DNA of 57,060 nucleotides, the filler included, from Dugesia japonica (lineage: Eukaryota): NCBI GenBank assembly GCA_001938525.1. It is 4 parts of 4 records of this genome, joined end to end, with 100 filler letters (N's around TTAATTAATTAA, not from the genome) between each part and the next. Parts side by side here need not be neighbours in the genome. Positions count along the whole stretch, not along the records: positions 1 to 17,657 come from MQRL01646279.1; 3 more parts are not named here. One strand, given 5' to 3'. The position numbers and the translations under genes were made by a program. Position 1 is the first letter of the stretch, and each line of letters starts with the position of its first letter. Positions 1,626 through 56,589 of the stretch are shown here, one piece after another. The notes beneath the pieces were generated by a model. That model was not told the DNA's origin. It saw only the letters and a program-made list of their open reading frames with translations, and searched no databases.

Positions 1626-2179
1626 TTAGTTTTTTTTATACACAGTAATACCTTCAGGATTGAAAATATCAGTTCTCCCCCTCAGTTCATCTGGAAATTG
1701 TTGCGTAAAGTCGAGAAAAATATCACCATGTAGATTTATTGTTGCATCTTGAAAGGATTCAATAAGAAATTGCTTATTATTAGGGNACGCCTGTCTTGCT
1801 AGAAAATCAACAACTGTTTGATCTCTTGGATTTTTAAATAGAACCAAGTTATGTACATTTAAATTACATGTCATGTGATTTCCTCCTTGATGGAATAAAT
1901 TTTGTGGTATGAATATCACAGTCAAATTACAATGTCTGGATATTTTTGTAAATAAATTAAAGTGTTTTTCTTTGTTTGCCTCCTGATACAGATTATCTAC
2001 TACAATAACATCGCCCGGCTTCAATCTCTTGCTCAAATTTTTATCCAATCCATTAATAATTTTCATTTTAATGTTAGAAAATTCTGATTGTGTTAACCCA
2101 TGCTATCTTCATATGCACCTCTGTGCCAATATATTTTGTTAAATTTTTATTTAAATAAATTTGATTTTAGTAACTTGCA
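1626..2179 (-). pseudogene. Polinton A32/FtsK-like packaging ATPase (Walker A in N gap)
   Basis: Walker B VIVVDNL, then FTKISRHCNLTVIFIPQNLF and LVLFKNPRDQ..LARQ, typical of Maverick ATPases. Confidence 0.9.
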
Positions 2180-2379
2180 NNNNNNNNNNNNNNNNNNNNN
2201 NNNNNNNNNNNNNNNNNNNNNNNNNNNNNNNNNNNNNNNNNNNNNNNNNNNNNNNNNNNNNNNNNNNNNNNNNNNNNNNNNNNNNNNNNNNNNNNNNNNN
2301 NNNNNNNNNNNNNNNNNNNNNNNNNNNNNNNNNNNNNNNNNNNNNTATATACACTCTTATATATTAATGATCATTAATA

Positions 2380-2815
2380 ATGTTGGTTAATATTAATTAC
2401 AAAGGTAAAGTATCGCAAGGTGTAACAAGCAAAATGAAGTTTTCTATCGGTAAACCTACTCAATTTGATGACGAAAGTGGGAAATATACGTTAATATTCT
2501 TTAAATCAGGAAATTATCGAATAATGGGATGTAAAAAACCGTTGGAAATGGAAAAATTATATTAAGGATATTCGTTTGCAATCATTAACAATTGTAATAA
2601 ATTTGGGAAAAGTTATTAATTTGCATAAATTAGCAAAAGTGACAAAATGTTGGTTTGAACCAGATTTGTTCCCTGCATTACGACTTACAATGTATGATCC
2701 TGTATGTGTTAACGTATTTTCATCAGAACAAATTGCAATACTCTGTATAAAGACACCACACTATTAAGGATATGTAGATAATATAATTTCTGATTTATAT
2801 AATTTAATTGTTTAA
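2380..2815 (+). pseudogene. TATA-binding-protein-like gene (one frameshift, one stop)
   Basis: Repeat 1 LVNINYKG...KYTLIFFKSGNYRIMGCK; repeat 2 LQSLTIVINLGKVINLHKLAK..CWFEPDLFPALRLTMYDPVCVNVFSSEQIAILCIK resembles TBP YEPELFPGLIYRM..PK.VLLIF.SGK.V.TGAK. Confidence 0.8.
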
Positions 2816-3606: not shown

Positions 3607-3946
3607 TTACAAAATGTCTCGAATTTTCCAAATTGGAGAGTTAACTTTTCTATTAATTAAGTTAAGATTCTTTCCATTTTTCTTGATTCCTTGTATTTCC
3701 ATCTGGATCATATATTGTTTAGATTTTTCGAATACATTCGATTTTGCATCATTATAATTGATGAAAACTGTATCCTTTATTGTAATTGTTGGTTCTATTC
3801 TTTTGAATAATAAATTCAAAGTATTCATGTCTTTCGAAACAATATCGGATATCACCAAACTATAGGTAGATGGTTGTATCTTCACAGGTTCCTAAATGAA
3901 AATATTAAATAATAAAATAAAATAAATACAATTACTTGAAACATAT
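3607..3946 (-). CDS. Spliced hypothetical Polinton-linked protein (family shared with 38802-39199); 5' part in gap
   Basis: Intron 3892-3935; last exon EPVKIQPSTYSLVISDI...MIQMEIQGIKK...SPIWKI is open to the stop. Confidence 0.5.
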
Positions 3947-8887: not shown

Positions 8888-10003
8888 TTATTCATCAATA
8901 ATATTCACAGTATGTTTACGTGATCGTGGCACAATCATTGTGCTGTATGCATCAATAAATTGTCTTTCATCAGTACTTTGTGATTTCCAGCATTTTATCA
9001 GTTTGAGTAAAACTAATTTAGAATTTCGTCTAAATGTAACAGAGCTTAAGAAATATAAAATAAAATTTACACCATTATTGCATGAAGTTAACATTACAAA
9101 CATCGATCCTACACTGAATACAGATACTACAAAATTTTGATCTTTATTATTCTTCCACTCTAATTTTGCTTCTAAAATTGAAAAAACGCATAACGGCATA
9201 GATGTTGCAAGATGGAAAATTGTTACTGGAATTAATAATCGATTGGCAAGATTTGTTTTTTTATTTCCTTGTTTTTTTGAATGGCATGTTTCATCGGTGC
9301 ACTGAGACTTTATAATTGGACTTCCTTTAACTGATTGAGATGTGGAATTCATTTGACAAGCTTTCGTTCGATAAGCTTTAGCGTTTCTAATAACTTTCAG
9401 AATACCCAAATTAAATATGAGAAGTAAAACTGAGGGAACAATGCTATAAATAATGATATCCCAATAGAAAAATCTATGTCTAAAAGCAACATCAGAAGTA
9501 TCACAGAGACAATAATGAGTAGTTGACGGCATTATTTCTAAATGCCATATTAGAGCACTATTTTTAGCAATTAATCCCGAAAACATTAATATCCATACTG
9601 CAACCTTTCTGTAACCCCTCCAAAACAATTTAGATTTGTATGGTGAACAAGCAACAAGAAATCTTTCAAACGTCAACATACATAAAATCCAAGTAGCAAC
9701 ATCGCGAGATGAATAACTAATGAATGTATGAAACTTACACATGCTGTTATTTGTTGTTCGAATCTCAAATTTGAAAATGAATCTTATCCAATACCTTAAA
9801 GGATTGATCCATAACGCTAATGTATCAGCAATCGCAAGAGCTGTAAACACATTTCTCGATTTACCCATTGTTCGAGTGAATCGAATAACTAAAAATGCGA
9901 TGAAATTTCCAAATGTTCCGATTACAATTAGAAGTGAATAAAAACATATAGAAAAATAACGAACGAAATCATTTTTACTTGATACATACAATGAACAGTT
10001 CAT
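8888..10003 (-). CDS. Intronless rhodopsin-like (class A) peptide GPCR, FMRFamide/myosuppressin-receptor-like orphan type
   Basis: 371 aa, seven hydrophobic segments, TM1 GN, TM2 LAIAD, ECL1 Cys (MCK), TM3 LTFERF, TM5 IVP..LL, TM7 NFILY, helix 8 FRR. Confidence 0.93.
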   Translation of the reverse strand: MNCSLYVSSKNDFVRYFSICFYSLLIVIGTFGNFIAFLVIRFTRTMGKSRNVFTALAIADTLALWINPLRYWIRFIFKFEIRTTNNSMCKFHTFISYSSRDVATWILCMLTFERFLVACSPYKSKLFWRGYRKVAVWILMFSGLIAKNSALIWHLEIMPSTTHYCLCDTSDVAFRHRFFYWDIIIYSIVPSVLLLIFNLGILKVIRNAKAYRTKACQMNSTSQSVKGSPIIKSQCTDETCHSKKQGNKKTNLANRLLIPVTIFHLATSMPLCVFSILEAKLEWKNNKDQNFVVSVFSVGSMFVMLTSCNNGVNFILYFLSSVTFRRNSKLVLLKLIKCWKSQSTDERQFIDAYSTMIVPRSRKHTVNIIDE

Positions 10004-10949: not shown

Positions 10950-13130
10950 ACTACCTTTCATGCATTTTCTCAATTATTCGATAAGATCCTTCAAATGTGT
11001 CTTGATTTTTATTTCTTGTTTCTACGTTTATGAGTACAACATCGCCCAATTTTTTTCCGCATTGGCCCACATTTATCTGTTAATATCTCTTCAAATAAAT
11101 TGGTAGCTTATAAACTCTTTGTATTCTCTTTAGATGCTGTTCTCACTACTTTGGTCTTCTGACGAATTTTACAACTACGAACTATCTTCTGTATTTGTCT
11201 CCACAAATTCTTTGCAATATATTTGTTTCTCCTCCTGTATAACATAATAATTTGTATATTTCTTATATTGTTTCATGCCGTTTGTCATACGGAATTTTCA
11301 TTTTCTTGAGCTCTATGATCTATTCTAAGAGTAAATCTTCTACCGTACAAGTAATATTTGAAATGCATACAGAAATAATAAACAACCAATAACTCTTTTC
11401 GTGTAATGCAGTATCCATTTTCATTACTCTTCATTTAGTGTGATCCATAGGCAACAACTCTTTCTCTTCCTTCTTTATCTTTCTGTGACAATACTGTTGC
11501 AATTGTATCAAAACTGGTATCCGTATCAAATATAAATTCTTTATTTATGTCCGAAAAACACAATATTCGTGCAGTCATTATAGATCTTTTCAGATCCTCA
11601 AAAGTATCATTTATTTCATCTGTCCATTCTAATTTTTTTTGCTTGGTCCGCTACACAACTGCTCTAATATATTTGACTTTCTTGCGTAGTTTTCTATAAA
11701 CTACCTGCAATAATTACAAATTCCGAAGAAACGTCGTAACTTCTTCACACGGCTAGATTTGCCAAATGTTCTTATTGCTTATATTTTGGACGGATCAGTT
11801 CTAACACCATCCATGATAATTATTTGTCCAAGAAACTTGATTTTGCTTTGAAGAAACTGACAGTTTTCTGGATTAATTCTTAAACCAGCCCTTATTATTT
11901 CCATCAATATATTTTCAATAACTTCATAGTGTTTATCTTTATTGTTCGTTAATATCAAAATTTCATCAAGATAAACCATGGCTCCATTGATACCGCCAAC
12001 CACTTTAGTCTTCATCACCTGAAAGGTCCTTGGTGCTGCCGTGATGCCAAATAATATTCTATTAAAACAATATTGTCCGGGTTTTGTACAAACGCCGTTT
12101 TTTATTGAGATTTTTCTTCAGGTTCTACCTAATAGTACGCATTTTCTAAGTCTATTGAACGGAAATATTTTGCTGCATCTTACTTGTTCAGCCTTTCATC
12201 GACATAAGTATCGAAAAGGCTTGTCCTTTCGTTATTGTATTCAATTATCTGAAATCCAAACATATTCTTATGTCTTTCTTTTCCGTTTTCAAAACACAGA
12301 TCAGTGGGGTATTCCGTGGAGATTTTCATTTCCAGATAATATTTTACTCGAAAAAGTTTCGAATAGATTCTTCAATGTTAGATTTTTAGTTCATTGGTTG
12401 TCTATAAGGTTTTAGATTGATTGGTTCGCAACTTGTGGATATTTTGTGTCTTATCAGATATATGGGTCTTACATCCCGTTTATCTGCCATAAAAGCATCT
12501 TTTTTACTTTCAATTATTTTCATTAACCATTGATCATCTTTAATCTTCAAAATATTTAAAGCTCTTGTCAATCGCTCTCCATTTTTAATTTGTCTCACAA
12601 ATTTCGCTTCGATATTACAAAACCTTTTGCATAAGCTGATATCCAAAAGTTTTCTGCATATCTATTCCTCCTATCAGATCTGGTGTTACTCCTTCAGCAA
12701 CTAAGAAACTAATCTCTTTGTAAACTTTCACAATTATCACTCCAATTTTTACTTTTCCAACAATTTCAAGTGTACCATTATTTGCACAACGCAATCTTTC
12801 ATCACTCATTTCTAAATGCATCTCTGGTAATTTATTTAAACAACTCAAACTGATCACGTTAATTCGAGCTCCTGTATCTAATAGACATTCAACTATATTT
12901 CCTTGAATTAATACCGTAACACTTGATCTGCCTTGCAATTTATGGTACAAAATATTTGTTTTCTTTTCTGCTTCAACTGTTTCAACCCATTCTATGTTTC
13001 TATCATCCAAAAAATTTTCCCTCTTTAGGAACCTGTATACTTTTCTGTACCTTTTCCTATATCATCCCACTTTTCGACTCCTTAAGGATAATTATTAACT
13101 TCATTTAACAATGGATAGCTCCAACCAACT
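10950..13130 (-). pseudogene. Ty3/Gypsy pol (PR-RT-RNase H-partial IN), degraded
   Basis: CLLDTGARINVI (protease), EPINLKPYRQP, VYLDEILI (YLDD variant), FIFDTDTS..IATVLSQ, YCITRKELL, TLRIDH, integrase Zn region SCKIRQK..TDKCGP; PR-RT-RH-IN order. Confidence 0.92.
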
Positions 13131-13182
13131 CCTCTACTGGTGAAGCCCTACCTTTTGGGTACTAGCTTTTGGAATCACTTTC

Positions 13183-13800
13183 CTATACTTCNTCATATCC
13201 CTCGTTTATACTGACATCTTCATCTGCAATTGCATGTACTCGATTATATCGGTTTTTTGATCTTTCTGCAGTCATAAATGTCTCACTTGTTCTTTTCAGT
13301 TTTGAATTTATGTAGCACTCTTCTGCTCTATGTCTACTATTACCACATCGTTTACACCTCACTTCTTGACATAGCCTTTTAATATGATTAACCTTTCCAC
13401 AACCAAAACATTTTGTTGGTTTTTTGTTTGGAAAATCTCGACTTATATGTTCTGTTTTATAAAAAATCCAACACTCTACCACTTTTTGCGTTGGACAATT
13501 TGCTTTAGTATGATTGATCTTATGACATAACCAACATTCGATATTTTTTTCCTTTCTTTGCTCAGGATGTCTATTCTTTGTATGATTTACAGGTTTCTGA
13601 TAATTTCGATTTTTAACTCACGCGTAACTTCTATCTGCATCAACTCGATTTCTATTTTTCTCTACTCNATCTACTAACGTNATTGTTTCTTCAATTTCTT
13701 CTATATTCTCTCGTTTCCGCAAAGTCACATCTTCTTCAACATTTTGTTATCTGAACAATATACTAGCATCTTTGCTACGATTTTTTCCTTTGTAAAATCT
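13183..13800 (-). pseudogene. Ty3/Gypsy gag with four CCHC zinc knuckles
   Basis: CWLCHKINHTKANC, CWIFYKTEHISRDF (decayed), CFGCGKVNHIKRLC, CKRCGNSRHRAEEC. Confidence 0.85.
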
Positions 13801-14700: not shown

Positions 14701-17700
14701 AAACCTTTAAAAATCTCTCATTTTTTTGTAATATTATTATTAATCAATTTTTTTTTTAATAACATATAAAATTATTTTTCAGATCAATTTCCAGAATTTT
14801 TAATTCAATTATTTTTCAATTTCAATTTCTTTATTTTTCTCATTAATTTGTATTAATATTTGTCTTCATTTTCATAATCTTTATCGTTGAAAATAATATA
14901 TCTTTTCTAAACGGTTTTGAACTAATTATACAGATATTTCTTAAATGTTTCTATAAATAATCATTGTTAAGTAAATTGCAATTTCTAACAAATCCCTAGA
15001 GATAATTAATTTATAATTTGAGTATGTAAATATCAAAATAAAAAATATACATTCTCTGTTTTATGAGCTTATTAAATATTTCGACGAGTCTTGATCAGAA
15101 ATGATTGTCCAGTCATACAATTCTAATGGAAACTAAATTAAAATTAATTTCAATCAAATCAATTATTATTGGTTAAAAAATTACATTAGATTCATTGAAA
15201 ATATTTCCGATTAATTTGCATAATTATTTTATGACTTTATTGGATTTCAAAAAATTGTATTTGATAAATACAGATCTAAAGTTAACAAGTTAAAATAATT
15301 ATGACTTCATATCTTAACTATATTTCTTCATTAATGTTGTTTTTCAACCTAACTCTCGTTTGCTTCCAAATTGATAATTAATGTTATGGCAAAATTAGAT
15401 TCCTCTGAATTTATATATTAATTTTGATGTTTCTTTGATTTTGTATTTTTTACAATTCAAATTACGGAATTTTTTTATCTTTAACATTTCAATTTTTTTT
15501 AATCTTGATTCCTTTTTTAACATGTGAATGTGTTAATTCCTGAAGTAGTCATAATTATCTTTTAAAATTGAGTGAAAAATCGAAAGGAGCCTAAATTTCT
15601 TTGATAAAATTGTTGTGGGAAAAACTGGTTGTATTTTACTATAATAAATTTTACAGACAAACATTAGAAAAATATGTCTTCTAAACTTTAAAATTAAGAA
15701 TAATTTCAGAATTATTAATAACAGTTTTTGTTTCTGATATTTGAATAAATTTTTTTATTTGAAATTGGATAATAAATATAAACAAATAAAAATTTATTAT
15801 TTTAGAGTATTTCCGATAGGAAATATGTTCTAATGAAAGTAACATAACATTTCAATAAAATATAAATAATAATCTTTAAAAAAAATGTTTTTCTTCAGTC
15901 TATGTAAATATATTTCTATTTTTTGTTAAATTTTAAATTGGAATTGTTTAAATGTACTGANNNNNNNNNNNNNNNNNNNNNNNNNNNNNNNNNNNNNNNN
16001 NNNNNNNNNNNNNNNNNNNNNNNNNNNNNNNNNNNNNNNNNNNNNNNNNNNNNNNNNNNATTAATGAAAAACATATAAATTACAATTTTCTAACTAAATT
16101 TCTTTTTGACAAAAATAATTTTATTAATAATTATTAATTATTTTTTTATGATTGAATTATTGTTGAGAAACATTTCGTTGGTTATTCAATACTCAAAAAC
16201 AATAAACAAAATAAAGAATTAAATTTTGCTGACTATTTAAACAACATTTTGTATATTCGAAATTTATCTTAATGAACTTTTGTTAATAATTTTTATCTTA
16301 TCATATTTCACATTTCAATTATCAAAATAAATATTTTATTTTTTTTGAATTATTCAACTAAATATTTTATTATAATTTCTTGAAAGAATTTAATCTACTG
16401 AAATAGGCTTAATGATATGTTTATAAAAAATTCAATTTANNNNNNNNNNNNNNNNNNNNNNNNNNNNNNNNNNNNNNNNNNNNNNNNNNTGCAAAACAAG
16501 GAAATGAACCACTGAAATTAATAAAAATAAAATAATGCCATTTAATAAAATATTTTTTGACAATTAATTTCGATGAAATAGCTGTCATCATAAAACAATT
16601 AAAAATCATTAAAATACTCTATTTACAAAGTTTAAATGATCATGTAATTTCAAGTATGTTTTCTCAATAAACAATCAATAAAATAATTTTAAGAGAATCC
16701 ATCATTTTAACATTAATTTTAGGATTAAATGTCCTTATCAACAATGCTTTATACACTACTTTCTCCTAATTATTATTAAATTCATTTAAAAATATCTTAA
16801 AATCATAAAAATCCATTGAATTTAAAGATCTTCTTCGAAGAGAAGATAAACTGCTAAATCACTGTCGTGTCAGGAATAATGGATAACAATTATTCCATTT
16901 GAACGAGTAATTCCTAGTAAGTGCAAATCAGTAGCTTATGCTGATTACTTCCATACCCATTTTACACACCACCGTCACTACGACCGACTGAAGGGTTTGG
17001 TGACATCGCTGTATTCCGATTTAAGAAATGACAAGATTTATATAAATGGGAAAGGACAAACTTTGGCATTTAGAGAAAGTAAATGTCGTAAATTCACGTT
17101 CATAAAAAAAGATTTCAAAGAAATAAAAATGGCAATGGATTAAAACCATAAAATTATTTTGTTGTAAAGTTATTTGAATAAAAAAAATTCATGTTATTTA
17201 TGAAAACCATTTGATTCCAAAACGAATTTTAGAATAAAAACTAAATTCAAACCAAATAATAACAAAATAAATAATTATTGTTAATTGTTTATAAAAATAC
17301 AGTATTAGTTAATTTGATATTTCATTGACATCATAAACAAATAATTACATCATAATAAATTTTTTATAAATTTTATTACAAAACATTTTAAAATAAAAAT
17401 AATATAATACAATATAAATATTTACAAATATGATATTTAAATGAGAAAATCTTTGGCTTGAGTAAATAGATAGTAGTGGCAAGATAGATAGTAAAAATTC
17501 ATCCCAAACTGACCGATCCCGAGGAAATAATTGACCGAATCACCCAAAAATTACTTAAACTGACCTCACCGGTTCAAAAAATTAACCTTATTCAACCTCA
17601 CTGAGAAAAGTTCAGACCAAATTCATCAGAACCAATCAAAAATCAACCGCATTCGACNNNNNNNNNNNNNNNNNNNNNNNNNNNNNNNNNNNNNNNNNNN

Positions 17701-18212
17701 NTTAATTAATTAANNNNNNNNNNNNNNNNNNNNNNNNNNNNNNNNNNNNNNNNNNNNAAAAGAAAATTTTTTTTGTGGTTTGTTTACAAATTTTGTTTAC
17801 ATTTAAAAACCATTTGGATTGCAAAAAATTAAAAGATTTGTTATTTAAGAAAGCTTTTTGGTGTCTTTAAATTTGATATTATAATTGATTAAATTGGTAT
17901 GCATAATTAGTTACGTAACCAAAACTTTTAATATATAAGCATTTTATAATTAAAATTAAGGATTAAATCTGAAGATGACAGATATTCTATGCAGTACAAA
18001 ATGATATATTTAAATGGCGTTTCGATGTTTTTATAACAAATTGCCGTTTCCTTCGATTATTTAAATATTAAAAGTATTTCATTTTAATTAACTAATAAGA
18101 TTTTAATTTAAAATCAAAAGATTGATTGAACAATAAATACAATAGTTTAATTTTCAAATCGATGATTTAAAATTTTAAAATTGTAAACATTCAAAATTAA
18201 TTTCAAATTTAG

Positions 18213-21200
18213 GTTTTCAAGACTTTTTAAATCGAATAGTCATAATGTACTTGAGAAAAGTAAAACAGAAATAAAATCTAAATCTATTTTAAATGAGGGG
18301 TAAAATTTAAGTTTTATTTCATATAAAAATAATATTACTAGCAATCGCGATCTAACTAGTGAATGCTTTGCATTAAAAGATCCAAATAGGCAACAAATAA
18401 ATGGCTGGTCTTTACCTCGTTTGACACAAAATTTAACACCTGATCTTCCGATGCCGATTTATTGCAGACCATTATTAGAAAATCAATGTGGTTTAGAGGT
18501 AAATGTTTCATTGAATTTCATATGAATTTCTATTATTATTATTAAATTATTTTTATTATTACTTTGAAATTTTTTTAAATTTTAACGTAATCAGTACAGT
18601 TTCAATATTTGTATTTTATTAAATTATTTGTTTATGTATTTGCAAAATGTATTATTTTATCAGTCTGACTCTTTAATAATTTCAACTCTTGAATTTTCAA
18701 TGGTCATAGAAAATTAAAAGTACTTGTTTTCATTAAGAAAGTAAATCCCGGTATATTCGAAATTATATTATAATTTTATCATAAATTATCAATGATCTTC
18801 CTTGTGAATCATAGGTATTAAATAATTTCAAAAAAGTTCCTTTTTATCAACTTTAATGTTTTCATTTATTATTTTTTAATAAAGTTCATTTCAATGACTG
18901 AGGTGAGTATGCTTTTGCTTTTTGAATAAATAATGAATTTAATCTGCTTGATTTATTAAAAAAGTTAAATTCTATAAAAATAATATTTTCTAAAATTCTC
19001 TTACATAAAATTATTTAAAAACGAAAAATCTTGGCGGTTGAAGAAAAATATAAATTTTGCACTTTTAAAAAATAATTTTAATATAAAATAATAAATATAA
19101 TTTTCATGATAATATATAATAAATGTTAATATATAATAATAAAATAAAAAGTGAACAAAGAAAATATTTTCCAACACAATAAATAATTAGAAAGTTGTAA
19201 AGGTACTGAAATTTTTTTTGTTATAATATTTTTAAAAAAATATTTAAATAAAATTGTGAATTGCTAAAAATTCATGTAGAAAATTTTGAATATCGTTTTA
19301 GTGTATTTTTAACTTTTTTGAAGTGGTTGTATGCCATTTTTAGTCTTCTATAAAAGTGTGAATCTCATCGAGTTTCCCACACAAGCTATTCTTAGTATGA
19401 AATTCTTGGACCAGTATTTCCTACTAACCTTGATGTTAGTGATATGTTTTTCATGGTTCCGAAAGCTAATATTACGTGTTTGGTTTAATTAGTTTTGGTC
19501 TGTTAAATAACAAGACTGAAATAATCATCTATTAAACNNNNNNNNNNNNNNNNNNNNNNNNNNNNNNNNNNNNNNNNNNNNNNNNNNNNNNNNNNNNNNN
19601 NNNNNNNNNNNNNNNNNNNNNNNNNNNNNNNNNNNNNNNNNNNNNNNNNNNNNNNNNNNNNNNNNNNNNNNNNNNNNNNNNNNNNNNNNNNNNNNNNNNN
19701 NNNNNNNNNNNNNNNNNNNNNNNNNNNNNNNNNNNNNNNNNNNNNNNNNNNNNNNNNNNNNNNNNNNNNNNNNNNNNNNAAAATTCAGCTAGGAACATGA
19801 TAGTGTCAAAGATTATGAAGACTTCAGGAATCGAAGAAAAGATCAGTTAGATTGTTCGAAAAGATAGAAGACAAATTAAGATATCATTTGTTACGAAATC
19901 TGAATCTTTTCACATGATCATGAAATCAACAGACAATAAATGTATTGCTTAAAGTCACATTTAGTTTCGTTGAAGTTGTAAAGAAAAAAACTGTGTATTT
20001 TATATTGGAATTTTTATCTTATTTACTATTTAAGAAAAATATTTACGGAAATTCTAAATTCTTTAGTTATAAACATTAGTTATAAACAATATAGTTGTTT
20101 CATCTAATGACGTCTTACTTGAAAATACTTCATTGAGTAGCTTTTTAACTCTAATTTCAAAATTTCGATATTTTTCATTTGGTTTCTGCATTTTTTCTGA
20201 CTTTCGAAACTTTATCAACCAATGTTTTCTGAATAATGAATGATTCTTGAAACCAACGTTCACAAATTTCATTAGATAATTTCTCAACTTCTTTTGTTTT
20301 CCCAACAATAATTCCTTAGCATTAGCATATCAAATGCAAACGATAATTCCATCTGATTGTACGACGCAAATTCTTTTGTTGTTTAAAGACACTCTTTATC
20401 TGTATCTGACACTCTTTAAATCCATCAAAGAATCTCGGCTTTGAAATTAGTAACTCCAGAGTTGAAGACGGTAATTTCGACAAAAAGTTTTGTCTTTCAT
20501 CTTTTTCTTTGGTTGCCATCGTGTTCACTGTAACGTGGTCGCCAGTTAGAACACAAGATTCTTCCATAAATATTTATTTATTAAAATTCAAATAATAATT
20601 GCAAAACTGATAATACATGGGCTGTTTTTAAGTTCTGCATATGGCGGCATATAAGCTTCCGATAATAAAATTTTATATTGTAAAACAGACACCAATATTT
20701 AAGTAATTGATATTCAATGTTTTGTTTAAATTTATCAATTCATTTATTAGTAGTGATTATTTTAAAATCTCAATAAACAGAAAAAATGTATTTACGCAAA
20801 GAAAATATTTGGGCAATAATTTTCTATAATTATCGAAGAGGATTTTCTCAAGAACAATGCCGATCCGAGATGATGTATGTTTTGGGGGATAAAGTACCAC
20901 ATCAGTCGACAATTTCACGCTGGTACGGCAACTTAAAACGTGGACGCTCTAATCTCACATATGACCGAAGAAATGGTGCACCAAGAACAGTAGTCATCCA
21001 AGAAAATATTGATCCTCTGCGTCAGCTAATCAAGGAAGATCGACATGCGACATATAGTAAGATGGAGTCTTACTTGGGAATTTCAAAGACCTCATTGCGA
21101 AAAATCCTGCATGAAAAATTGGGTGTAAGAAAATTAGTTTCCCGTTGGATCCCACATCTGCTACCTAATGAACAGAAAATGGCTCGTGTCAATTGGTGCC

Positions 21201-24200
21201 AAAAAACTTTGACCAGTTTTAACAACAAGCTTAAAAAATATCTGCAGCATTATGTATGGTTACGAATCTTGGATTTACTCATACAAGCCTCAGAATAAAC
21301 GTCAATCTTTTGTTTGGGTAATCCAACAAAAGTTATTCGTACCCGTAGTGTGTCAAAGAAGATGGTGGCAACCTTTGTCGCAAAAGCAGATCATGTCGCT
21401 ACAATCGCTCTGCACAATCAGAATACGGTGACTGCGCATTGTTATACAACAGTTTGTTTGCCAAAATTATTTTCAGTACTCCGAAAAACAAACAGAAGAC
21501 GAAAAAATATCCTTCACCATGATAATGCCANATCACATACCGCTCAAATGACAACTGAATTTCTAGCTTCTCAAAACATCGAACTATTGGATCATTCTCC
21601 GTACAGACCTGCTCTGAGCCCCAACTATTTCTTTTCGTTCCATAAGATTTAGAATAAACTTCGTGGTCAACGGTTTCAGTCACCAGAAGAGGCAGTAGAT
21701 GCTTTCAAGATAGAAATTTCGGCCGTCACAGCTGATGAGTGGAATAACTGTTTTAACAGTTGGTTTGAACGCATGCAAAACTGTATTAATCTTGATGGAG
21801 AATATTTTGATAAACAATAAAACATTTTGAGTCTTTTTAGTCTTATTTTTATGGCTGTATGCAGAACTTAAAAGACAACNTACATATTTAAACAAAGTTT
21901 ATATATCAGTTTATAACTGTCAAAGATATAACTGTCTCTATAAATGAATAGCAAGTTCCCAGAGATAAATAAAGCATCTATATTATTTCGCGACACCAAC
22001 ATAATTTCCACAGGCTGAGCACCACTGTTGCAATTGATTATTATATTTTTAAGCTAAAAGTTATAAATTTTTTAAGATTTTTCTAATTTTCAATAAAGTT
22101 TTTATTTGTTTCAATTTTCTTTTGATGTTAAAACTGTAAATACCCGTGAGTTATTTTCATTGAATTTAAATGACAGCTGTTAATCTGTAATAGATTCTTA
22201 ATTTTAAAATTTAGGCCTAAAAACTCGATAAAACGGCTTATCTTTTAAAAATGAAATTTAATAAATTTTCGGTAATATTTGAAATTTTGTGTCGCTAAAA
22301 TAAACTTTTAAAAATTTAATTTTTAATTTTGTAAATAAATTTCAACATTTTATCATATTANNNNNNNNNNNNNNNNNNNNNNNNNNNNNNNNNNNNNNNN
22401 NNNNNNNNNNNNNNNNNNNNNNNNNNNNNNNNNNNNNNNATTGATGATAAATTTCAATCTTAAATTTGATCTTTTTGAATGAAATGTTTTTGAAGGAACT
22501 GATATCATAGGTAATTCTCTTTATAAAAATAAATTTTCTATCTGGTGAGAATTGTAACACTTTAAATAGCGAAAGAAATTTCTAAAATTATTTTTTGATT
22601 TACACTCTTCATTTTTGTAAAAGTATAAGTTAAAACCAATTTTTTTTAATTCTTCATCAAATGATATATTTATGTAATTGGTTGTTACTTTGTTGATTGT
22701 GATAACAACCGACACAAACGGTTTAAAAATAGTTTTCCAGTAATTAGCAAAGCGCTTTTAATATTCATTATTTTGCATTATATATTATTTTAATACATAA
22801 ATATTGACAATATTGGTGNNNNNNNNNNNNNNNNNNNNNNNNNNNNNNNNNNNNNNNNNNNNNNNNNNNNNNNNNNNNNNNNNNGCTAATATAGATATAT
22901 AATTTAGATTACTTGTGCTGTTTCAGTAAATTTTTCGAGAGGATTAAATTTGAAAAATAATACTTATGTCGGCTCTAGCATATTTTATGGTAAAAATATT
23001 TTATATCCAGACTTTTCGAAAACTGAAGGAAACATGAAAGTTATACTTTATACATTATTTATATTTATTGATGTTTAGCAAGAAAATATAAATAAAACTG
23101 AAACGTTATTCAATACGAATTTCGATAATAATGGAAGTCATGTGTGGATATGTACATCATCTGATAATCAAAGTCAAATTATAATTGTTGATGCCAATAA
23201 GCCTGCTGATTATTTAGATGCATTTATTATTCAAAACTCACCAGTTCAATGTATGGGTAGTGTGCCAGGTATATATTTTAAAGTAAAATATTTAAAATAA
23301 AATATTGAAAATTATAAAAATATTGTTGAATAATTTTGATAAGAGAATACTGTTAATGTAAGTGATAAGAGAAAATTATCAACATCAAGACTATATGTAT
23401 ATGTTGTGATTTAATAAAAGGATAATATCAATGGTTAAACAAATGTACTATACTTTTATCCAGTAAACAGTATATCTTTTGGGTTAAATTGTCTAAATCA
23501 ATTATTGCACAATGTAATAAAGTGCTTTTTCACAATTATCAATCAATACAGTTCACACATCACATCGAAACTTGCACCTAAAATGTACACCCCCTAGCGT
23601 GCATACACACCCTTTTTGATCTGATCGCCAAAAAATTTTAATTAAAATAAAATTATACAGATATAAAAAAAGAATAAATGAAAACAAAAAAATGGATCAT
23701 ATCAAAGAAATTGAATAAAAAATGTATAATCCACTAGATCAGAAATCTATAATTGATCAGCGGTGGGTGTTGTGGCTACATGCGCCACTATCTCCTTATT
23801 GATATCAAAATCCATCTAAAACAACTTGTCGACAATATTGTTTATTGGAGTTGAAATATCAACATTATATCTGTTGGGTTTTTAGGATTTTGATGATTAA
23901 TTTTTTTAAAATTCTCTGATCTCGCTTTCATTTAAATATTTTCTTCGTCATGTCTAGGGACATAACTAAAAACCACAAGCATTTGTGTCGCCTCTGTGAC
24001 ATGCTCCTCTTTTCCACGGGTTCAGCGCGACTATGTGGTATCGCGTCTTGCTAAATTTATGAACCCTGACAGCAATAACTCCCATGCTCAGTAAACAAAA
24101 ATAAATCTCAAATCGAAAACAGAATTCCGTCAAACTCTACATTTATTTATTATTTTCCGCGAGCGATTACACCTTCACGATGATGGGCATTGGCTGCACT

Positions 24201-26181
24201 TTACACTCCGCCGCATCCCCGGATGTCATTGTTAACAACTGGTCCTCGAGCTGACCCAGCAGAACTCCCTGTTGAATTAATGCATCTACAGTTCCTTTGA
24301 TTATTTTGAGTCCTTGTCGGAGCTGTGAGTTGTAGTGAGGCCTGAGTAGCGGTCAGCTGCTTCTTGGTACTCCGGAACTTCTCCACCAATCGCCAACCTT
24401 TAAAAAGCATCTCCGTTTTCACTTTCTCGTAAACCGCTTTCTGATCATTTAGCAGCTCGACGTCATTTCTCCAGGGAATTCAGAATGTGCCGGAATCACC
24501 GTCGTTGGTAAGGACCAGCGGAATATGAGGCTTGTAGTATTCAGTCATATTTCTGTTAAATAAAAATTATNGATTTTCTAATACCAATGTTAAATGCAAT
24601 TCAAAACAATAAAAAAATTAATTAATTAACGTTTCTTCGGCCTGCGGCCTATCAATTCTGATTCCTCGCTTTCTGTAGTATGAACCAGAGAAGATGTCCA
24701 CCAAAGCGGCCATCTCTAGTTCTCACTAGTGCGAAGCTCTAACAAGAACGTCCCCATTACTGTTTGAAAAAATAAGAATTTAGTATTCATTGCTTAATCA
24801 TAGTTAAATAGATTATTATGTTCCTAAATATTAAGTATTTTATTGATAAAAAACACAGCTTTAGAATTATAAAACTATATTATTTCATAACTCATTGAAG
24901 AAATCATTTACATAAAATAAAAAAATTAATTAAACCAAAACAAAATTCACTACAGAAATTCAATATGCAATTTTTATTCCTCAATCGAGCTCTCAGAAAT
25001 GATTCCTTAAAAAATCAATGACTTTTGGATATCGTTTTCTCATAAAATTCGACTCTCATTCTTCACTCATGTCTCTGTAATAATTTACTGATTTTTTGAA
25101 TATCATTTTCTCAAAAGTTTGGCCTTCATTTTCCACGCATATCGCTGTAATAATTTACTGATTTTTTGGGAGCTCGATCACCGTACGGCATAGAGGGTAC
25201 TCAGATGAGTATTCCGAGAATTTCTTAATTGAATCTACTATTATGACTAATATCTTTGAATAATTCATTCAATAATCCAATTAATTTACTCAATCGAATA
25301 AATTCGGTTAAAATAAAATTACAAGACTAAATGTTATTTATAACACAAATAATTCAATTCGGTCACCAAAAATACAATTGATGTAAACAAATATATAATT
25401 TCATTAATGAAAACAAAAATAATTTTATCCTTTCAAAGAAATAAATATTTTTATCCATTTAAAAAACATAATAAATTAATAAAATAAAAGGTACAAAAAA
25501 ATCGATAAATTATTAAATAAATCAGTTTAATCAATTAGAATAGTTATACTACTTACAATTTGTAATTTGTAAGTATCTAAATAAAAAGCCAAGTGACACT
25601 TTTAACGAGAGGCACTAAATGAATCATCTCTCGAAAAAAATTTCAGCGCACATACACGTATTACCATGCACGTAGTGAGAGGTGTATATTTTCCTGCATT
25701 CTAATTTGTCGATACTAGAACCTTTGTCTGAATAATTTTCTTACCAGGAGAGTATATTCCAGTGCGCTACTATCTACTTGCTCAAAGTTAATGCTTTTCA
25801 TTTCAATTGTTCAATATGAAATACGATTTGGGCTGAAATATCAAAAATATTTTGATTTTTAATGTTATTTTGTAGAATGTCATCTATTGTTCTCATATCC
25901 GTAGTTTTTGTGATCGATATTTAACTTTTAAAAATAATTTTAAACTATTTTTTTAGGAGCTAATCAAAACGATTATATTCAAAAATGTGCTGAGAATTCC
26001 TTGGAATTTCAATTATTAGAGTTTGGTGATATAAATTTGGAACAGTCGAATGGCACTTTTCTTAAATACAAAATGTCATTAATTGATTGCTTACCATTTA
26101 ATGTGCAAGCCTCTGATAACATTGATGAATTAACAGATTTAACTATTACTACAAAATTTCTTCATTATTCTAATAGTCAGG
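18213..26181 (+). CDS. MAPK8IP3: JNK-interacting protein 3/4 homolog (sunday driver/UNC-16), internal exons only
   Basis: Exons 18213-18299 (FSRLF), 18342-18498 (GWSLP...PMPIYCRPLLE), 22908-23039 (ITCAVSVNFSRG..VGSSIFY), 23079-23268 (VWICTS...IIVDANKP.DYLDAF...VQCMGSVPG), 25957-26181 (GANQNDY); all GT-AG and phase-compatible. Confidence 0.88.
20063..20567 (-). pseudogene. Possible LTR-retrotransposon gag remnant in JIP3 intron
   Basis: KPRFFDG...EFASYNQ pattern resembling the N-terminus of retrotransposon capsids; frameshifted. Confidence 0.3.
20614..21886 (+). mobile_element. Full-length inactive mariner (mellifera-like), ~1.27 kb
   Basis: Imperfect ~27-bp TIRs sharing TTTTAAGTTCTGCATA, TA at both ends; transposase 20786-21820 with RWIPHLL, (G)YESWIY, HHDNA, HSPYRPALSP, GEYFDKQ*; frameshifts. 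Confidence 0.93.
23573..25698. mobile_element. Putative ~2.1-kb insertion with imperfect ~30-bp TIRs and GC-richer coding-like cargo
   Basis: TGCACCTAAAATGTACACCCCCTAGCGTGCAT versus reverse complement TGCAGGAAAATATACACCTCTCACTACGTGCAT. Confidence 0.45.
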
Positions 26182-26899
26182 GTAGTATTTTATATATTTT
26201 CATAACTAAATTTTAAATATATTAAGTTTAATCCGTTAAAAGGAAAAATATTGACTAAACAAGTTTTCTATTATTGATTTTTAAAATAAATTTTGATGTT
26301 AGTTTCTAAATCACTAATTATTTGAATTGTGTTTCTATTAGTATTTTGTGACTAGAATGAATTGAATAAAACTATGTCGAAATATTGAACAATTTATGAA
26401 AATAGAAAAACATCAATTTTGATCTTTATATTTTGAAGTTTCTTTTGACAAATACAGATCAATGATTAACAAGTGAAATCATTTATGTTAGTTTTAGTTT
26501 AAAGCAGTTGGTCTTAATCTTTTTTAAGGTCACATGACACTTGATAATAAATAAATGTACTTATTTTTAATATATGGTAAGTAACATTAATGTCTAATAG
26601 AACATCAATTAATTAGTAAAAATAATATTTAAATGATTTAAAAATTTTCTATGAACTTGGAGTTATTTGAACGTGCTTAATTTTAAAAACTTCATTCATA
26701 TCATATCTTATTGGTTTTATAGTTCAAATTAACCCACAATAAAATACAGTTAATTTTATTGATTATTTTATTAATTTATAATGAAATCAATATAAATAGG
26801 AAATAAAAATTTAAACAAAATCGTCATGAATAACAAAGTAAATATTTTACATATATTATTATATTTAAACTTTATTAATCAAAATAAAAACCAACAGCT

Positions 26900-34988: not shown

Positions 34989-36189
34989 CTACAAAGTTTA
35001 CCGTTATACTATTAATTTCATTATTCATATATAAAATATTAGTTTCAGATTTTATTTCACTTTCTTAATAGATATATTTAAATTCCTCTTACTAAATAAA
35101 TTTTTTTAAATCGATTAAATAAAAAATATTTAATTAAATTGATCTAATTAGTTAAATAATATTTAACGTAAGCNCGCAAATGAAATCGAATTACGTGACC
35201 TCGAAGTTTAATTACAAAATGAATTGATTATTAAAAACAAATCGTAAATTGGGTGAATTATGTAATTTAATTATAAATAATATTTAATATTTCTGACTGT
35301 GTGTGATTTAAAAATTTAAAAAATAAACCTTTTTAAAATAAAAAATTTTAAAATTGTCATATTGGATAAGCAAATCAATTTTTTAAAAGAAAACAATTAA
35401 TAAGACTAATTGTTTCATCGAAACCATAAGTACTTTCAAAACATACAATAACTAGTCAGAATCCTAATTAAAAACTACTAGAGTTAATTAATTTAAAAAT
35501 TATAGTTTTTCAAAAATTATCAAAGAATATTTAAAGATATGAAATTAACAATATGAAAATAATAATAATTAATAAAGGGCTATTCAATTTTTTAAAGCAA
35601 CTAGAAAGTAACCGCTTATAAATTCCAAAAAATTAAAGTTCTTAATAAATAACTTTGTTTNNNNNNNNNNNNNNNNNNNNNNNNNNNNNNNNNNNNNNAA
35701 ACATTATCTTGTTAAGGGATAATAGAAAGGTACCAGATTTTGGATAAAACACGTCACACACAAGATAGCCCCGTTTGGACCACGTACTTTTGAAAGCGCA
35801 ACATACAAATCCCTATCTTTTTCAAGTTCTTTGAAATTAATTGGAGAATTATTATTAATAATATACATACAAAGTATTTTTGTCCTTAAGGGATTTATTG
35901 TCGTCTTTTAATTTTGAAAATTTTAATTTTTTGACAATGCTGTGCTTTCAAAAGTAGACCGTCAAGCCGAGGGCCAAATTGTTTGAAGATTTTTCGTAAC
36001 GCATATACAATACATTTATATACAAAATTAATATTTTATAAATAATTTTGTAAATAAAAATATGTAACATTTGTTTTTAAAATTTTCACTGAATGTAATT
36101 TATGCAATTTTACTTTTTAAATAATTTAGCCAAATTTTCCGATTTACATATTTGAATAATCGCGTAAATTTTATTTCGATTTTTAAAAA

Positions 36190-38306
36190 ATGTCGAATCT
36201 AAATACTCATTCAGAAGAATGGATGGTCATTGATAACATTTTACCTTTCGAGGAACATCAATTTCAAGTCACTCACTTAGGATCCCATTATTATAGGCAA
36301 TATAGAGCTTTTGTTCACACATATACAATTTCTCCTGAATTAAATATTAAAACTTGTTTAGAATTTATTTTAGATGACATTACAAATAACAACCCATATT
36401 ACACCATAAAAATAACTGCTTATCACACTTTGATTAGATTAAATTCTAATAATTATTTCCATACAGGACGAAGAAAAATATAGTAAATAAATTCTTTGCT
36501 AAATTAGATCATGTTTTACAATCAGCTGATGACATAGATATTGATACAATAAAATTTGAATTTCTACTTATATCCATGCCAAGCGGAACATGACAAAACA
36601 ATCGCATTTATGGAGCATCTAAAATCAACTAATCAAATATTTCAAACCTTTGCTGCAAAATCTGTTTATACAATTCAAAATATGGATAAAATATGTTTAG
36701 CTAGAGCAACAGTAGTAGCTTTAACATATGACAACTTCGCTAGTAAAAATTATTTTGAATTTGACTCAAAAGATAATAGAAGAAAATATATTCACAGAGG
36801 AAATGCTTTTCAAACTGAATATGTTAATAGTTTGCAAATAAATCCTATAAATTCCTATAAATCATAATGGTAGCAATTAATGATTAAAAACAATTTGAAT
36901 TATTTTTAAATATAAGAATAATAGTTTATAATATTAACGATTTAATCGTATACAGAGGAATTGATTTTTTCAAAAAACAAACATTTATATATTTAGAGAA
37001 TAACCACTTTAATGCTATTTCTAAAATAGCTGCATTCTTAAAATCGAATAAATATTACCATAATTATTTAATAGGCTTTCAAAATGAGCATACATGCCCA
37101 ACGGGATTATTGTTGTCAAGAAAGAAAATTGTAAAATAAAATAACTGCGGCAAAGAATATTCAAAAAAATATAAACACAGTTGTAGCTACAAAAATTGCC
37201 CTGTGTGTCATGAATTTTATACGTCACCATTTAATAACCACAAGTGTTATATTAAAATTAATGGAGGAAAATTTAAAATTAGTAGCTCTTATATATTTTA
37301 TGACTTTGAAGCAACGAAAGAAACAAGAATTTGTCATTAAATGAACTATACTATTGCATATGATTCATTAAGGAAATTATTTTATAAATTTCAATTAAAA
37401 TATGTTACTTTATTTAAAATAAATTCAGACGTAACTAATGATGGAACTGGAGAACAAATAAAGTGAAAATCTGACGAATTAAATGATAATAATATATTTT
37501 CTAAATGTACTTTAATAAAACAAATAGTTATAAATGATTCAATATCTTTAATAGATACTTTCTGTAAATTTTTTATAAGCACGGATTTTAAAGATTATAC
37601 GTTTATAACTCATTACTCAAAAGGATAATATAATCAACCAATATTAGGTTGGTTAATTAAAAATAAATTACCTCTAGATGAAATAAGTAGAGGCAATAAA
37701 ATTATACACATACATGTTAAGTATTTTAATATTAGATTGATTGATTCATTAAATTTTACATTATGTGCGGTAAAAGCATTTCCAGAAACATTCGGCTTTA
37801 AAGGTAATAAAGGCAAATTTCCTCATTTAGCTAATACTCCAAATAATAAAAATTATGTAGGAAACTATCCTCCTTTATATTATTAAGGATATGATACAAT
37901 GAGCAATACTTTAAAGTAGAAATAATCTGACCAATTAACTATGAAACAAGAATTAAAAGCTTGGCACGATCAAAGAATATGTAAAAATGAAATATTTAAT
38001 TTTCAAAACGAACTATTTTATTATTGTTTAACTGATGTAATGATATTAACAAAAGGATGTTTAATATATAAAGATGTATATAAAAATATAAAGATGCATT
38101 ATGGTAATTTATTAAATTTAGATCCATTTCAATATATAACTATTGCACAAGTATGCACTAAAACTTTTATGTCTATAATAAATAATAATGTAACAGGGAT
38201 ACCAAGATTATCTGACTTTGAAGATGTTTATTCAACTAAATCTTTGAATTGGTTAGAATATTTAAATTACATAAATAAAGTAAATATTCAACTCATATTC
38301 TCATAA
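36190..38306 (+). pseudogene. Polinton protein-primed DNA polymerase B, N-terminal half (vOTU-like region, exonuclease), degraded
   Basis: KICLARA..VAL and LENNHFNAI; ExoI FYDFEA; ExoII ITHYSKG; RLIDSLNF, FPETFGL, KGKFPH; ExoIII YCLTDV; DPFQYITIA; YSTKSLNWLEY. Confidence 0.92.
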
Positions 38307-42804: not shown

Positions 42805-44551
42805 TCAAAAAAAATTTTGTTCGAATCTTTTATTTTAAATGAATTAAATAAATAAAAATAAAACTGTTGATGCGTTGAATGAAAAATTAATTACATTAGA
42901 AAAAAAGAGATTGCGATTAGATATAGAACGAATTATTCACGGTGTTCAATATTTAGCAGTACAAAATTACAGCATTTTGAGGAACAAATAACAAATTGTT
43001 TGACGCACATTACGGAAATTTTTTAAAATTAATAGAAACGTTTGCTAAACTTGATGGTGTCATGGTTGAACAGTTAAACCGTGTTCAAAGTAATGAGAAT
43101 AAAATGCCACATTATTTAGGTGAAAAAATTCAAAATGAGTTAATATTTTCAATAGGAGGAAAAATTCAAACAGAAATAATTTCTTTACTTCAATTAGTAG
43201 TGCAAATATTATGCAATAATATTAGACTGTACTTCCAATATTAGCCACCAGGAACAAATAACTATTATTGTGCAATTTGTATATTTAAATAATACTAATA
43301 ACAAAATTGAAATTAGAGAACATTTTTTAGGCCTTTGTCCTATATTAGATTCTACTGGAGAGGGATTAACCAAATTTATAATAGACTTTTTAAATCAAGA
43401 AAATATTAGCATGTACGATATGCGGGAACAAGGCTATGATAATGGTGCTAATATGAAAGTAAAACATAATCGTCTCTAAAAAGAAATTTTAGATGTAAAT
43501 CCTAGAGCTTTTTATTTGCCATGTGCTTCACATAGTTTAAATTTATTTATTAATGATGCCGCAAAGGCGTCTCTTGAAATTACTACCTTTTTACTTTGAT
43601 TCAAGAAATTTATGTTTTCTTTTCATCTTCAACTCGTCGTTGGCAAGTTTTAATGAAAGAGTATTCTTCATTGACTGTTAAACCAGTGTCTGAAACAAGA
43701 TGAGAAAATAGAATCAACGCTGTAAAAGTTTTAAGGTATAATTTGGAATCAATTTATGATGCATTATACGTTTTATTTAATGATTTATCTTGAGATGTTA
43801 ATACAAGAAATATGGCCAAATCTTTAATAAAAATAATCAAATCATACAAACTTATATGTTCCATAGTTATTTGATCTAACATATTATTCAAGGTAAATAT
43901 TGTAAGTAAATGTTTGCAAAAATGTGATTTAGTTATACCAACTGCCTTCGAAATGCTGAAAAACCTCAAAGATTCCTTACTAAAATATAGATCGGATGAT
44001 AATTTTAAAAATATGATGAATGAAGCAAAAAAGATTGCACAGGAGATCAATTTTGAAACTGAGTTCCCAGTGGTTGATATAATAAGACCTCGTAAAAAAT
44101 AGAAAATATTTATGTATGAAAATATGGATGAAAGTTCTCAATTGCCATTAGAAAATTATAAAGTTAATTTTCTTTCACTATTTTAGATACAGCAATAACA
44201 AAAATAGAGGAAAGATGTGAGCAAATAACAGTCCATAACGAAACTTTTCATTTTTTTAAATGACATTTAAACGTTGCTAGAATTGAATAGAGGTACTAAA
44301 TTTAAATATTGTATGAATTTGCAACTTAAATTGTTCGATAATGAGCGAAATAAATCTGATATAAATGCATTAGATTTATGTGATGAAATTGAAATACTTT
44401 TAACNNNNNNNNNNNNNNNNNNNNNNNNNNNNNNNNNNNNNNNNNNNNTTAATTAATTAANNNNNNNNNNNNNNNNNNNNNNNNNNNNNNNNNNNNNNNN
44501 NNNNAAAAGAAATTAATGTCTTATTCTTTAAATACCTTTGAGCATATATAT

Positions 44552-47559: not shown

Positions 47560-48098
47560 TTAGCCATTACTTTTCCATCTAGTATTACATAATTATGTTC
47601 ATTCATTTCGGTTTCGGATATTTCGGTTGATCCATAAAATTAAGTTTTAATGAATCACATAGAAAGAATGGTAAAGATCCTTTAATAGACGTTTTTCTAT
47701 TGTCTTCTGATCTATATCCCATTGCCGCCATCACCATTACAGTTTATTTTAGTTTCAATCATTACTTTTTTCAATTTTGAAATTGTTAAATGAAAGGATT
47801 ACATCTTTAAAAAGAGTATGAAATATAAAGTTAATAGGAATAGCTTCATGAGTTTCAGCCACTGATTTACCGTGCTTATTAATTATCTTCCCTTGAAAAA
47901 ACATGGAAGTATTATTCAAATCTAAATACTCTCTTTGTTGTTCCATTTATAAAAAACTATATAATTTCGTGATACTGAAATTAAAATCATTGGAAATACA
48001 TCTTCAAACGAATAAAATTCAACAACTACTTTTGTAGATGGCCGAGTAAAAATATATAATTCAGTTTTATCGCAAATAATTTTTTAATATTGTTCCAT
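47560..48098 (-). pseudogene. Polinton major capsid protein, N-terminal fragment
   Basis: ICDKTELYIFTRPSTK..., EYLDLNNTSMFFQGKII...PINFIFHTLFKDV.LSFN. Confidence 0.85.
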
Positions 48099-48129
48099 GT
48101 CCTCTAATTTGTTTGTTTATAAGTGACTC

Positions 48130-48809: not shown

Positions 48810-49105
48810 AGTTCATCCTAGTGCTTCTAACGTAATTTTTAGTTATGCAGTTATAAAACCCCACCTGTTTATTCATAACGCGCCTCATCAATTTTCTGAT
48901 TTTTGTGTTTACATGAGTTAATAATGTTTTTTTCATGTTTTTTCAATACTTCCTTTCTCTCTTTACTCAATACTACATTGCCACGGACAATATTTATGAT
49001 AATCTCAAGAAAAACATGTATAACATATGGTGGAAATGATTGCAGAAGTTTCTTTTTCAAAGATTTTGACTATTTAATTAATGCTGTAAAAACGGAATAC
49101 TTCAT
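48810..49105 (-). pseudogene. Conserved small Polinton virion/core protein
   Basis: LEIIINIVRGNVVLSKERKEVLKKHEK followed, after a frameshift, by TGGFITA.L (GGF putative protease site plus hydrophobic tail). Confidence 0.7.
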
Positions 49106-49139
49106 TGAAATTTTACTTTTATCAACAACTATTTGATCT

Positions 49140-49966: not shown

Positions 49967-49969
49967 GTT

Positions 49970-56577: not shown

Positions 56578-56589
56578 AATTTATTTTAC

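Follow-up and report, generated by a model that had tools for sequence, protein, structure and literature searches.

Of the described systems closest to the gene reported here, the TATA-binding proteins of beta- and gammaherpesviruses (vTBPs: KSHV ORF24, EBV BcRF1 and HCMV UL87) are alike in that they serve a virus without its own RNA polymerase, have the TBP fold and a polar DNA face, and go with a variant TATA word before late genes. The accessible text of PMC12529657 gives this word as TATTWAA and marks KSHV ORF24 by its polar DNA face. However, ORF24, a protein of 752 aa, has four Phe but not the acidic residues for TFIIB, contacts Pol II directly and depends on five partners, whereas the compact TBP of Polintons has about 145 aa, three Phe, a kept acidic loop and the word YATAAACR, and is without the N-terminal Pol II-binding domain and the C-terminal DNA-binding extension of the ORF24 type. 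BcRF1- and UL87-type proteins were weak fold matches to it (E 0.006–0.014). By analogy, the compact TBP would work like ORF24 while standing outside that family, and the enrichment of YATAAAC described below fits the variant-word feature.

TBP-like factors of Nucleocytoviricota and mirusviruses are also alike in having a viral TBP fold (25 BFVD matches at E ≤ 0.001), at only 9–20% identity. In the accessible parts of PMC7221094, giant-virus TBPs are reported to lose the N-lobe regulatory surface, as in the compact TBP, and the available portion of PMC10132985 lists TBP as a mirusvirus core gene. These viruses differ in their large genomes, in mostly having their own RNA polymerase and in nearly all carrying a viral TFIIB with a diverged loop (PMC7221094, accessible parts); in compact-TBP loci, which are partial, none of large genome, RNA polymerase or viral TFIIB was found.

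Polintons or Mavericks (adintoviruses) provide the genomic setting, and TBP-bearing loci share with them pPolB, integrase, A32 ATPase, C5 protease, double jelly-roll (DJR) capsid and a PLA2-like gene. The first-pass annotation of this DNA had placed TBP outside the standard Polinton set. We found no text on such a gene or family; the one Polinton-related mention that turned up is a 'TBP' gene label, which Starrett et al. 2021 (PMC8502044; preprint 10.1101/697771) give in a legend, that of Fig. 5, on MELD viruses with adintovirus-like PolB. The available portion of PMC8502044 holds no text on a TBP gene, family or promoter word, and TBP is not among the labels extracted from the animal adintovirus maps of its Fig. 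S2. A term search for TBP or TATA-binding gave no mention in 10.1101/2023.10.06.561300, 10.64898/2026.06.19.733378, PMC12220804, PMC11161782 and PMC11296320, and the accessible part of 10.1101/2022.05.25.493380 mentions TFIIB for giant viruses only. Within the open full texts searched, no paper on the compact TBP family or its motif was found. The TBP gene in this Polinton family is real, and it is a family trait.

The window, that is, the whole stretch of Dugesia japonica DNA that was analysed (57,060 nucleotides, filler included), carries two copies of this gene. In copy 1, the shortened repeat 1 lies at 2380–2565 on the plus strand (Pfam TBP E 0.017; 65–75% identity over 60 aa to intact relatives) and runs into a frameshift near 2560 at its end. 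Repeat 2, which reads from FEPDLFP to CVNVF, follows at 2561–2815 on the same strand (Pfam TBP E 8.2e-6, and tblastn), with an in-frame stop at 2765 and homology on to about 2809. The Pfam match spans of the two halves, 2380–2562 and 2525–2764, are in two frames, and repeat 2 scores 26 bits against the PF00352 profile, where the cut-off is 22.9 and intact relatives reach 57–65. Thus, of the two-repeat ORF of about 145 aa that had been annotated, both repeats were recovered as Pfam TBP, but the open frame is absent. Both halves match the uninterrupted proteins of four intact natural relatives (P0151, P0176, P0145 and P0163; 149–153 aa) at 65–75% identity, and hence the pieces derive from one gene of about 150 aa. 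The region 700–3000 matches 10,439 and 13,690 records in two contig sets, mostly 90–95% alike, which indicates that this host carries the family in many copies. At both break sites the window is unlike most of those copies, and the breaks are therefore specific to the window copy. Copy 1 keeps the residues of the compact family, with Asp in place of the second acidic Glu.

Upstream of copy 1, a 166-N assembly gap (2180–2345) conceals the start of the neighbouring ATPase together with the intergenic promoters. This decayed gene, on the minus strand at 1626–2173 with its 5′ end inside the gap, was recognized as the Polinton A32-like packaging ATPase, as first annotated; although Pox_A32 matches only at E 0.04, its identity to 13 intact loci is 60–72%. 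Further along the same strand lie a broken retroviral-like integrase (619–1379; rve E 3.7e-6; 54% to the L049 integrase) and the start of the gene that comes after it, penton-like by position (465–602; tblastn E 2e-11 to L021). On the other side, a member of the small cluster c4, which adjoins TBP in 20 loci, occupies 3610–3891 on the minus strand. Mapping of relatives therefore gives for copy 1 the order c4, TBP, ATPase, integrase, penton-like start.

For copy 2 the genes mapped in the same way run capsid, integrase, c3, ATPase, TBP, and a PolB remnant lies beyond them. This second, diverged TBP gene had been annotated at 49631/49746 and is indeed present (49746–50035, plus strand; Pfam TBP E 0.022; over 109 nt its DNA is about 70% identical to that of copy 1), in a state with several frameshifts and stops, and it is cut within repeat 2 at about 50035, where a fusion-glycoprotein remnant starts. 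The decayed packaging ATPase of copy 2 (49121–49631) is on the minus strand, as are all the following features: the c3 gene, which comes after the ATPase in intact loci (48854–49153), and the integrase remnant (48138–48581), both recognized by similarity to the loci of relatives; a remnant of the DJR major capsid protein (47609–48074; 45–50% to the L005 capsid protein, whose family folds as a DJR capsid with Foldseek E 1e-14); and a remnant of a PolB of the kind that TBP-bearing elements carry (55422–57060; 35–42% to the L021 PolB over 55479–56535, E 2.5e-62), which we infer from its position only to be part of copy 2. A YATAAAC word at 49666–49672, again on the minus strand and a likely late promoter, stands 41 nt upstream of the ATPase ATG (49631), and the motif scan placed another (48115–48121, minus) directly upstream of the capsid-gene remnant.

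The head-to-head placement of TBP and ATPase stressed in the first-pass annotation is gap-free in copy 2, with 114 bp between the genes, whereas the junction in copy 1 spans the 166-N gap. As an arrangement of the family it did not survive: the ATPase is co-oriented with TBP in 27 of 31 loci, and in the other four the genes are divergent with an ORF between them, so head-to-head is a local arrangement. The contrast drawn between an intronless TBP and multi-exon host genes also proved weak, since the host GPCR at 8888–10003 is likewise one exon. In the window as a whole, remnants of all Polinton hallmark genes tested were found (integrase, A32 ATPase, pPolB and DJR capsid) except the C5 protease, and of 53 inverted repeats the 25 longest included no pair that bounds either copy as terminal inverted repeats. 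Both TBP copies in the window are non-functional fossils, and the function of the protein has accordingly to be deduced from relatives. RNA reads lean to the same strand throughout, being sense over TBP and antisense over ATPase and integrase, and only 1 of 942 (run X22) matched at 99% identity, the rest coming from diverged copies; hence these reads carry no information on direction and do not show TBP mRNA. No transcription start sites were seen in the RNA evidence on the window.

The surrounding DNA holds other elements and genes. The remnant that cuts off TBP copy 2 is a broken fusion glycoprotein of Monjiviricetes type (49935–50794, minus strand), either a Polinton gene or part of an inserted env-bearing retroelement. 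A Gag-like remnant with a Cys/His knuckle-like stretch was seen by eye at 53131–54223 (minus), with no informative Pfam match, and a second, different protein-primed PolB remnant at 36187–38303 (plus; DNA_pol_B_2 E 2e-5) matches none of the 80 TBP loci described below. We also observed an LTR retrotransposon remnant with zinc knuckle, protease, RT and RNase H (11438–13617, minus), a Mariner-type transposase remnant (HTH_48; 20777–21817, plus) and a DUF4371 (hAT-like) remnant (42981–44099, plus). The host DNA is AT-rich and animal-like; the GPCR mentioned above is an intact rhodopsin-family gene of 371 aa on the minus strand, and scattered host-gene exons at 16880–26213 (plus), with only a weak beta-propeller match, look JIP3/SPAG9-like.

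A HMMER search with repeat 2 recovered 116 clusters at 50% identity (E ≤ 0.001), while a word-index search with repeat 2 alone gave no matches. Four of the 116 fall outside the family, namely a TBP of archaeal type, a TBP-like protein without a clear place and a pair of long repetitive proteins. A profile search gave 163 proteins at E ≤ 1e-5, and family members are mostly 140–175 aa long, with the TBP fold from end to end. In the metagenome, the loci analysed were the best 80 of 186 stretches matched by the profile; among them, hallmark genes were ATPase in 31, integrase in 17, penton-like in 13, capsid in 10, PolB in 8 and protease in 6. These are partial elements, many of them from a few samples, and the labels 'penton-like', c3 and c18 are putative ones, given in part by position. 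Pfam confirmed rve, Pox_A32, Peptidase_C5, DNA_pol_B_2 and the PLA2-like domain, and the capsid protein has a double jelly-roll fold. Since a hallmark gene is present in 13 of 15 loci of at least 5 kb, the linkage of TBP homologs to Polinton genes is borne out. The proposed comparison of dN/dS across copies, made on 23 disjoint pairs of relatives, some near saturation, gave a median of 0.21 and a maximum of 0.46, that is, purifying selection on TBP; the median for the ATPase was 0.08 (6 pairs). Repeat 2 of the window falls with the compact family on a 100/99 branch in a tree whose outgroups are one archaeal and one unplaced TBP, with eukaryotic TBP and TBPL1 absent. The non-host origin of the gene was upheld. 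In IMG/VR, one poor match to the compact TBP was found (L001, left out) and none to the capsid or ATPase of its element or to an archaeal TBP query; a phage collection gave no match. Taxa assigned in the Atlas are based on 1–47 records.

Small genes recur beside TBP, namely c4 in 20 loci, c15 in 8 and a C2H2 zinc-finger gene in 11, and no neighbour is common to all TBP subgroups among the 80 loci. Searches returned no informative match for the function of c4, and the idea, taken from sequence by eye, that c4, c13, c14 and c16 are single-strand DNA-binding proteins received no support from searches. Clusters c10 and c4 beside TBP (L005:1502-2135 and similar loci) resemble two exons of one spliced gene with GT...AG flanks. 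Upstream of 3542 in L057, a tRNA-like sequence was noticed by eye between TBP and ATPase. Accessory genes in TBP loci include a ubiquitin-conjugating enzyme (L021:225-719), a RING finger protein (L055:13315-13893) and a leucine-rich repeat protein (L038:1918-3327).

The predicted model of the intact relative P0004 (pLDDT 95) is a complete saddle in which repeat 1 has just one helix, of five residues, and helix H2 is missing. Foldseek gave 44 matches at E ≤ 0.001, and all those listed are TBP; against TBP the model has Z 13.6 and an rmsd of 2.7 over 145 residues at 19–26% identity, and the next unrelated fold has Z 7.0. Together with the Pfam matches, this model confirms the fold that had been proposed. 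Atlas scores were 0.94 for a TBPL1 cluster and 0.95 for archaeal clusters. Residues were counted in 131 non-redundant relatives (243 near-full-length proteins of 310, reduced at 70% identity), and yeast positions were inferred by way of an archaeal TBP alignment with numbers from the accessible parts of PMC12529657 (Table 1) and PMC1636458.

As in cellular TBP and TBPL1 (PF00352), the two-repeat saddle retains three of the four kinking Phe (F116 equivalent in 130/131, F190 and F207 in 131/131 each), N69, P191 and both acidic residues of the TFIIB loop (Glu in 125/131 and 130/131), a loop whose role in the C-lobe is TFIIB contact according to the available portion of PMC7221094. The same source portion gives the N-lobe Phe as Trp in TBPL1, whereas it is Phe in the compact TBP. 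The compact protein differs from cellular TBP in being about 30 aa shorter and in having lost F99 (Phe in 1 of 131). Its repeat linker is at most 24 aa in 114 of the 131, compared with 33 in archaeal TBP, and helix H2 is absent in these 114; the 17 long-type members keep a longer linker. The first-pass reading that repeat 2 keeps FEPDLFP and VFSS is accurate for the window, and its reading of repeat 1 as shortened and apparently short of helices and one Phe holds, as to helix H2 and the F99 equivalent, for most of the family. Seven DNA-face positions are nearly fixed as residues other than those of cellular TBP: V71 to N (124 of 131), V122 to R (129), T124 to M (130) and N159 to S (120), and I194 to R (121), V203 to C (125) and L205 to N (130). 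These last three are the positions altered in the altered-specificity yeast TBPm3 (PMC1636458, accessible part). Both the model and the residue counts indicate a rebuilt convex face in repeat 1. On its residues, the compact TBP belongs to Pfam TBP but departs from two canonical features, the four Phe and the N-lobe helix H2, which is the surface for TFIIA, TAF1, Mot1 and Brf1. The loss of one of four kinking Phe suggests that DNA binding could be weak.

A concrete candidate target for such a factor is the word YATAAAC. We counted it within 100 nt upstream of the first ATG, with sequences de-duplicated by shared 12-mers, on the sense strand, on the antisense strand and after shuffling. It precedes 26 of 27 ATPase genes (shuffle mean 1.1), 9 of 10 capsid genes (0.4), 13 of 16 integrases (0.5), 10 of 13 penton-like genes (0.5) and 18 of 20 c3 genes (0.6), as well as c18 (5/6), protease (3/5), c2 (16/21) and PLA2-like genes (10/12), in every case with 0 antisense; shuffle means across all genes of this class were 0.2–1.1. 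The word is weaker or absent upstream of zinc-finger (3/11), c4 (2/16), c10 (0/5), c13 (1/8), c16 (1/7), c17 (0/4) and PolB (1/3) genes. Upstream of the TBP gene itself, YATAAAC occurs in 1 of 41 sense (4 antisense, shuffle mean 1.6), and 19 of 41 have a canonical TATAWAWR (mean after shuffling 5.2, maximum 10), with an Inr-like TCA 24–36 nt after this TATA in 14 of the 19, counted without a shuffle control. Of 134 ATAAAC sites, 65 begin 30–49 nt upstream of the ATG, and among late-window sites 87 of 95 have C at position 7, compared with 7 of 27 in TBP and other windows, counts that are not de-duplicated. The word is identical in the short-type and long-type subgroups, whose ATPases are only 34–39% identical. 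Over the whole window it is not enriched (38 compared with 39 expected), because most of the window is host DNA.

Polinton loci without the compact TBP served as controls. An ATPase-anchored scan blind to TBP yielded six Polinton fragments, and one further locus came from another search. One of these seven (L082), found by its ATPase alone, has a compact TBP and an ATAAAC core 37 nt upstream of the ATPase, and near two other genes it has the exact word. Among the other six (L083–L088), none has YATAAAC within 150 nt of the ATPase; no TBP lies within the fragments L083, L084, L085 and L087, and L086 and L088 carry a different TBP plus a TFIIB-like gene. The Fisher p of 6e-6 for the association of TBP and word is overstated, since there are only 6 control loci, kinship is ignored and four of the six are fragments of 1.5–7.9 kb whose TBP could lie outside. 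Moreover, the co-occurrence may reflect shared ancestry.

The TBP of L086 and L088 represents a second lineage (102 clusters at 90% identity), like the compact TBP a Polinton-encoded TBP without RNA polymerase. In contrast to the compact TBP, it forms a separate 100/99 branch, has about 170 aa, keeps the four Phe positions and has the first acidic loop residue replaced; it overlaps a TFIIB-like gene (L086:4714-5828 and L088:9876-11071; Zn ribbon E 2.9e-6, TFIIB repeat E 6.8e-7), and no YATAAAC stands upstream of any listed gene. L088 is about 20.6 kb long with terminal inverted repeats.

We consider it likely that the compact Polinton TBP is an early viral TBP of altered specificity that switches on late genes through YATAAAC(A/G) with host TFIIB and Pol II. 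In this model, host TFIID would transcribe the TBP gene early from its TATA and Inr-like promoter, and the compact TBP would then bind YATAAACR. According to the accessible text of PMC3142196, repeat 1 of TBP kinks DNA at base pairs 7–8 and repeat 2 at 1–2; the rebuilt repeat 1 may recognise position 7 as C, and recognition of the relaxed first base would fall to repeat 2. Because no TFIIB gene was found in the partial compact-TBP loci, the kept acidic loop would call host TFIIB, and then Pol II, to the packaging, capsid and integrase genes. Having lost helix H2 and the repeat-1 loop, the protein could escape control by TFIIA, TAF1 and Mot1. Since capsid and packaging genes stand behind a common non-standard TATA word, the compact TBP likely redirects host Pol II there, and the suggestion in the first-pass annotation of a promoter-recognition factor for the virion-gene block now has a concrete target. 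With slightly less assurance, and by analogy, we regard the whole as probably a two-step programme of virus type in a widespread Polinton lineage, in which a mini-TBP of 145 residues would act like a phage late sigma factor, and the second lineage would split the job into a TBP–TFIIB pair. Against a late switch, the integrase is not an obvious late gene and carries YATAAAC.

Among other explanations, the one that survives best, though we think it unlikely, is that the compact TBP is a decoy soaking up host TFIIB or other TBP partners or occupying host TATA boxes, and that YATAAAC is read by host TBP, as a weak variant of TATA, or by a Forkhead protein. A decoy would suit the loss of one kinking Phe and helix H2 alongside a nearly invariant acidic TFIIB loop; however, a pure decoy leaves the nearly invariant new polar residues of the DNA face unexplained, and this reading, also raised in the first-pass annotation, is less favoured than that of a promoter factor. 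A host reader is conceivable, as ATAAACA fits a Forkhead consensus and cellular TBP was crystallised on a C(-25) TATA variant (1qn3), a complex showing that it can bind TATAAAC. However, the core preferred by Forkhead proteins, GTAAAC, is not enriched (3/27 upstream of ATPase, 0–2 elsewhere), YATAAAC is strand-specific at a TATA-like distance, and the word is missing within 150 nt of the ATPase in all six Polinton loci without compact TBP. Literature on TATAAAC with Hoogsteen pairing was not found in open full texts.

Somewhat less probable again is that the compact TBP binds the word only together with zinc-finger, c4 or c15 neighbours in a bigger complex encoded by the element, in the way that herpesvirus ORF24 acts with five partners. 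The rebuilt convex face of repeat 1 and the recurrence of these small neighbours speak for such a complex, but TBP and the word are common to all subgroups whereas none of the neighbours is, and no TFIIB-like gene was found in the 80 partial loci. It is very improbable that YATAAAC is a poly(A) or termination signal of the preceding gene, or a by-product of conserved codons, unrelated to TBP. TATAAA and CATAAA are poly(A) signal variants, the word often stands at the end of the preceding gene, and 45 of 124 upstream sites lie within coding regions; yet the word also precedes ATPase genes with no co-oriented gene directly upstream (window 49666–49672; L077), most sites (79/124) are non-coding, the coding ones fall in two frames, and where [YH]K[QHR] is encoded near a start, 19 of 23 cases are written with the word, compared with 27 of 54 elsewhere (p 0.01). 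Lastly, the idea that one element recently took up a retrocopy of host TBP or TRF2, which an intronless gene and a eukaryote-like EPELFP loop might suggest, is largely refuted, as archaeal TBP (80 bits) scores at least as high as human TBP (58–66 bits) against the family profile and 116 clusters share the derived features.

The value of an early compact TBP acting through YATAAAC rests with the family, the window copies being fossils. If the model is true, this is a very small natural TBP with changed specificity, which would give insight into TATA recognition and could provide an orthogonal promoter-factor pair. A promoter factor with a named word makes it directly testable how animal Polintons activate their virion genes, and whether they do so with or without a helper virus. 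A dedicated promoter factor of this kind would argue for an autonomous early/late programme in Polintons.
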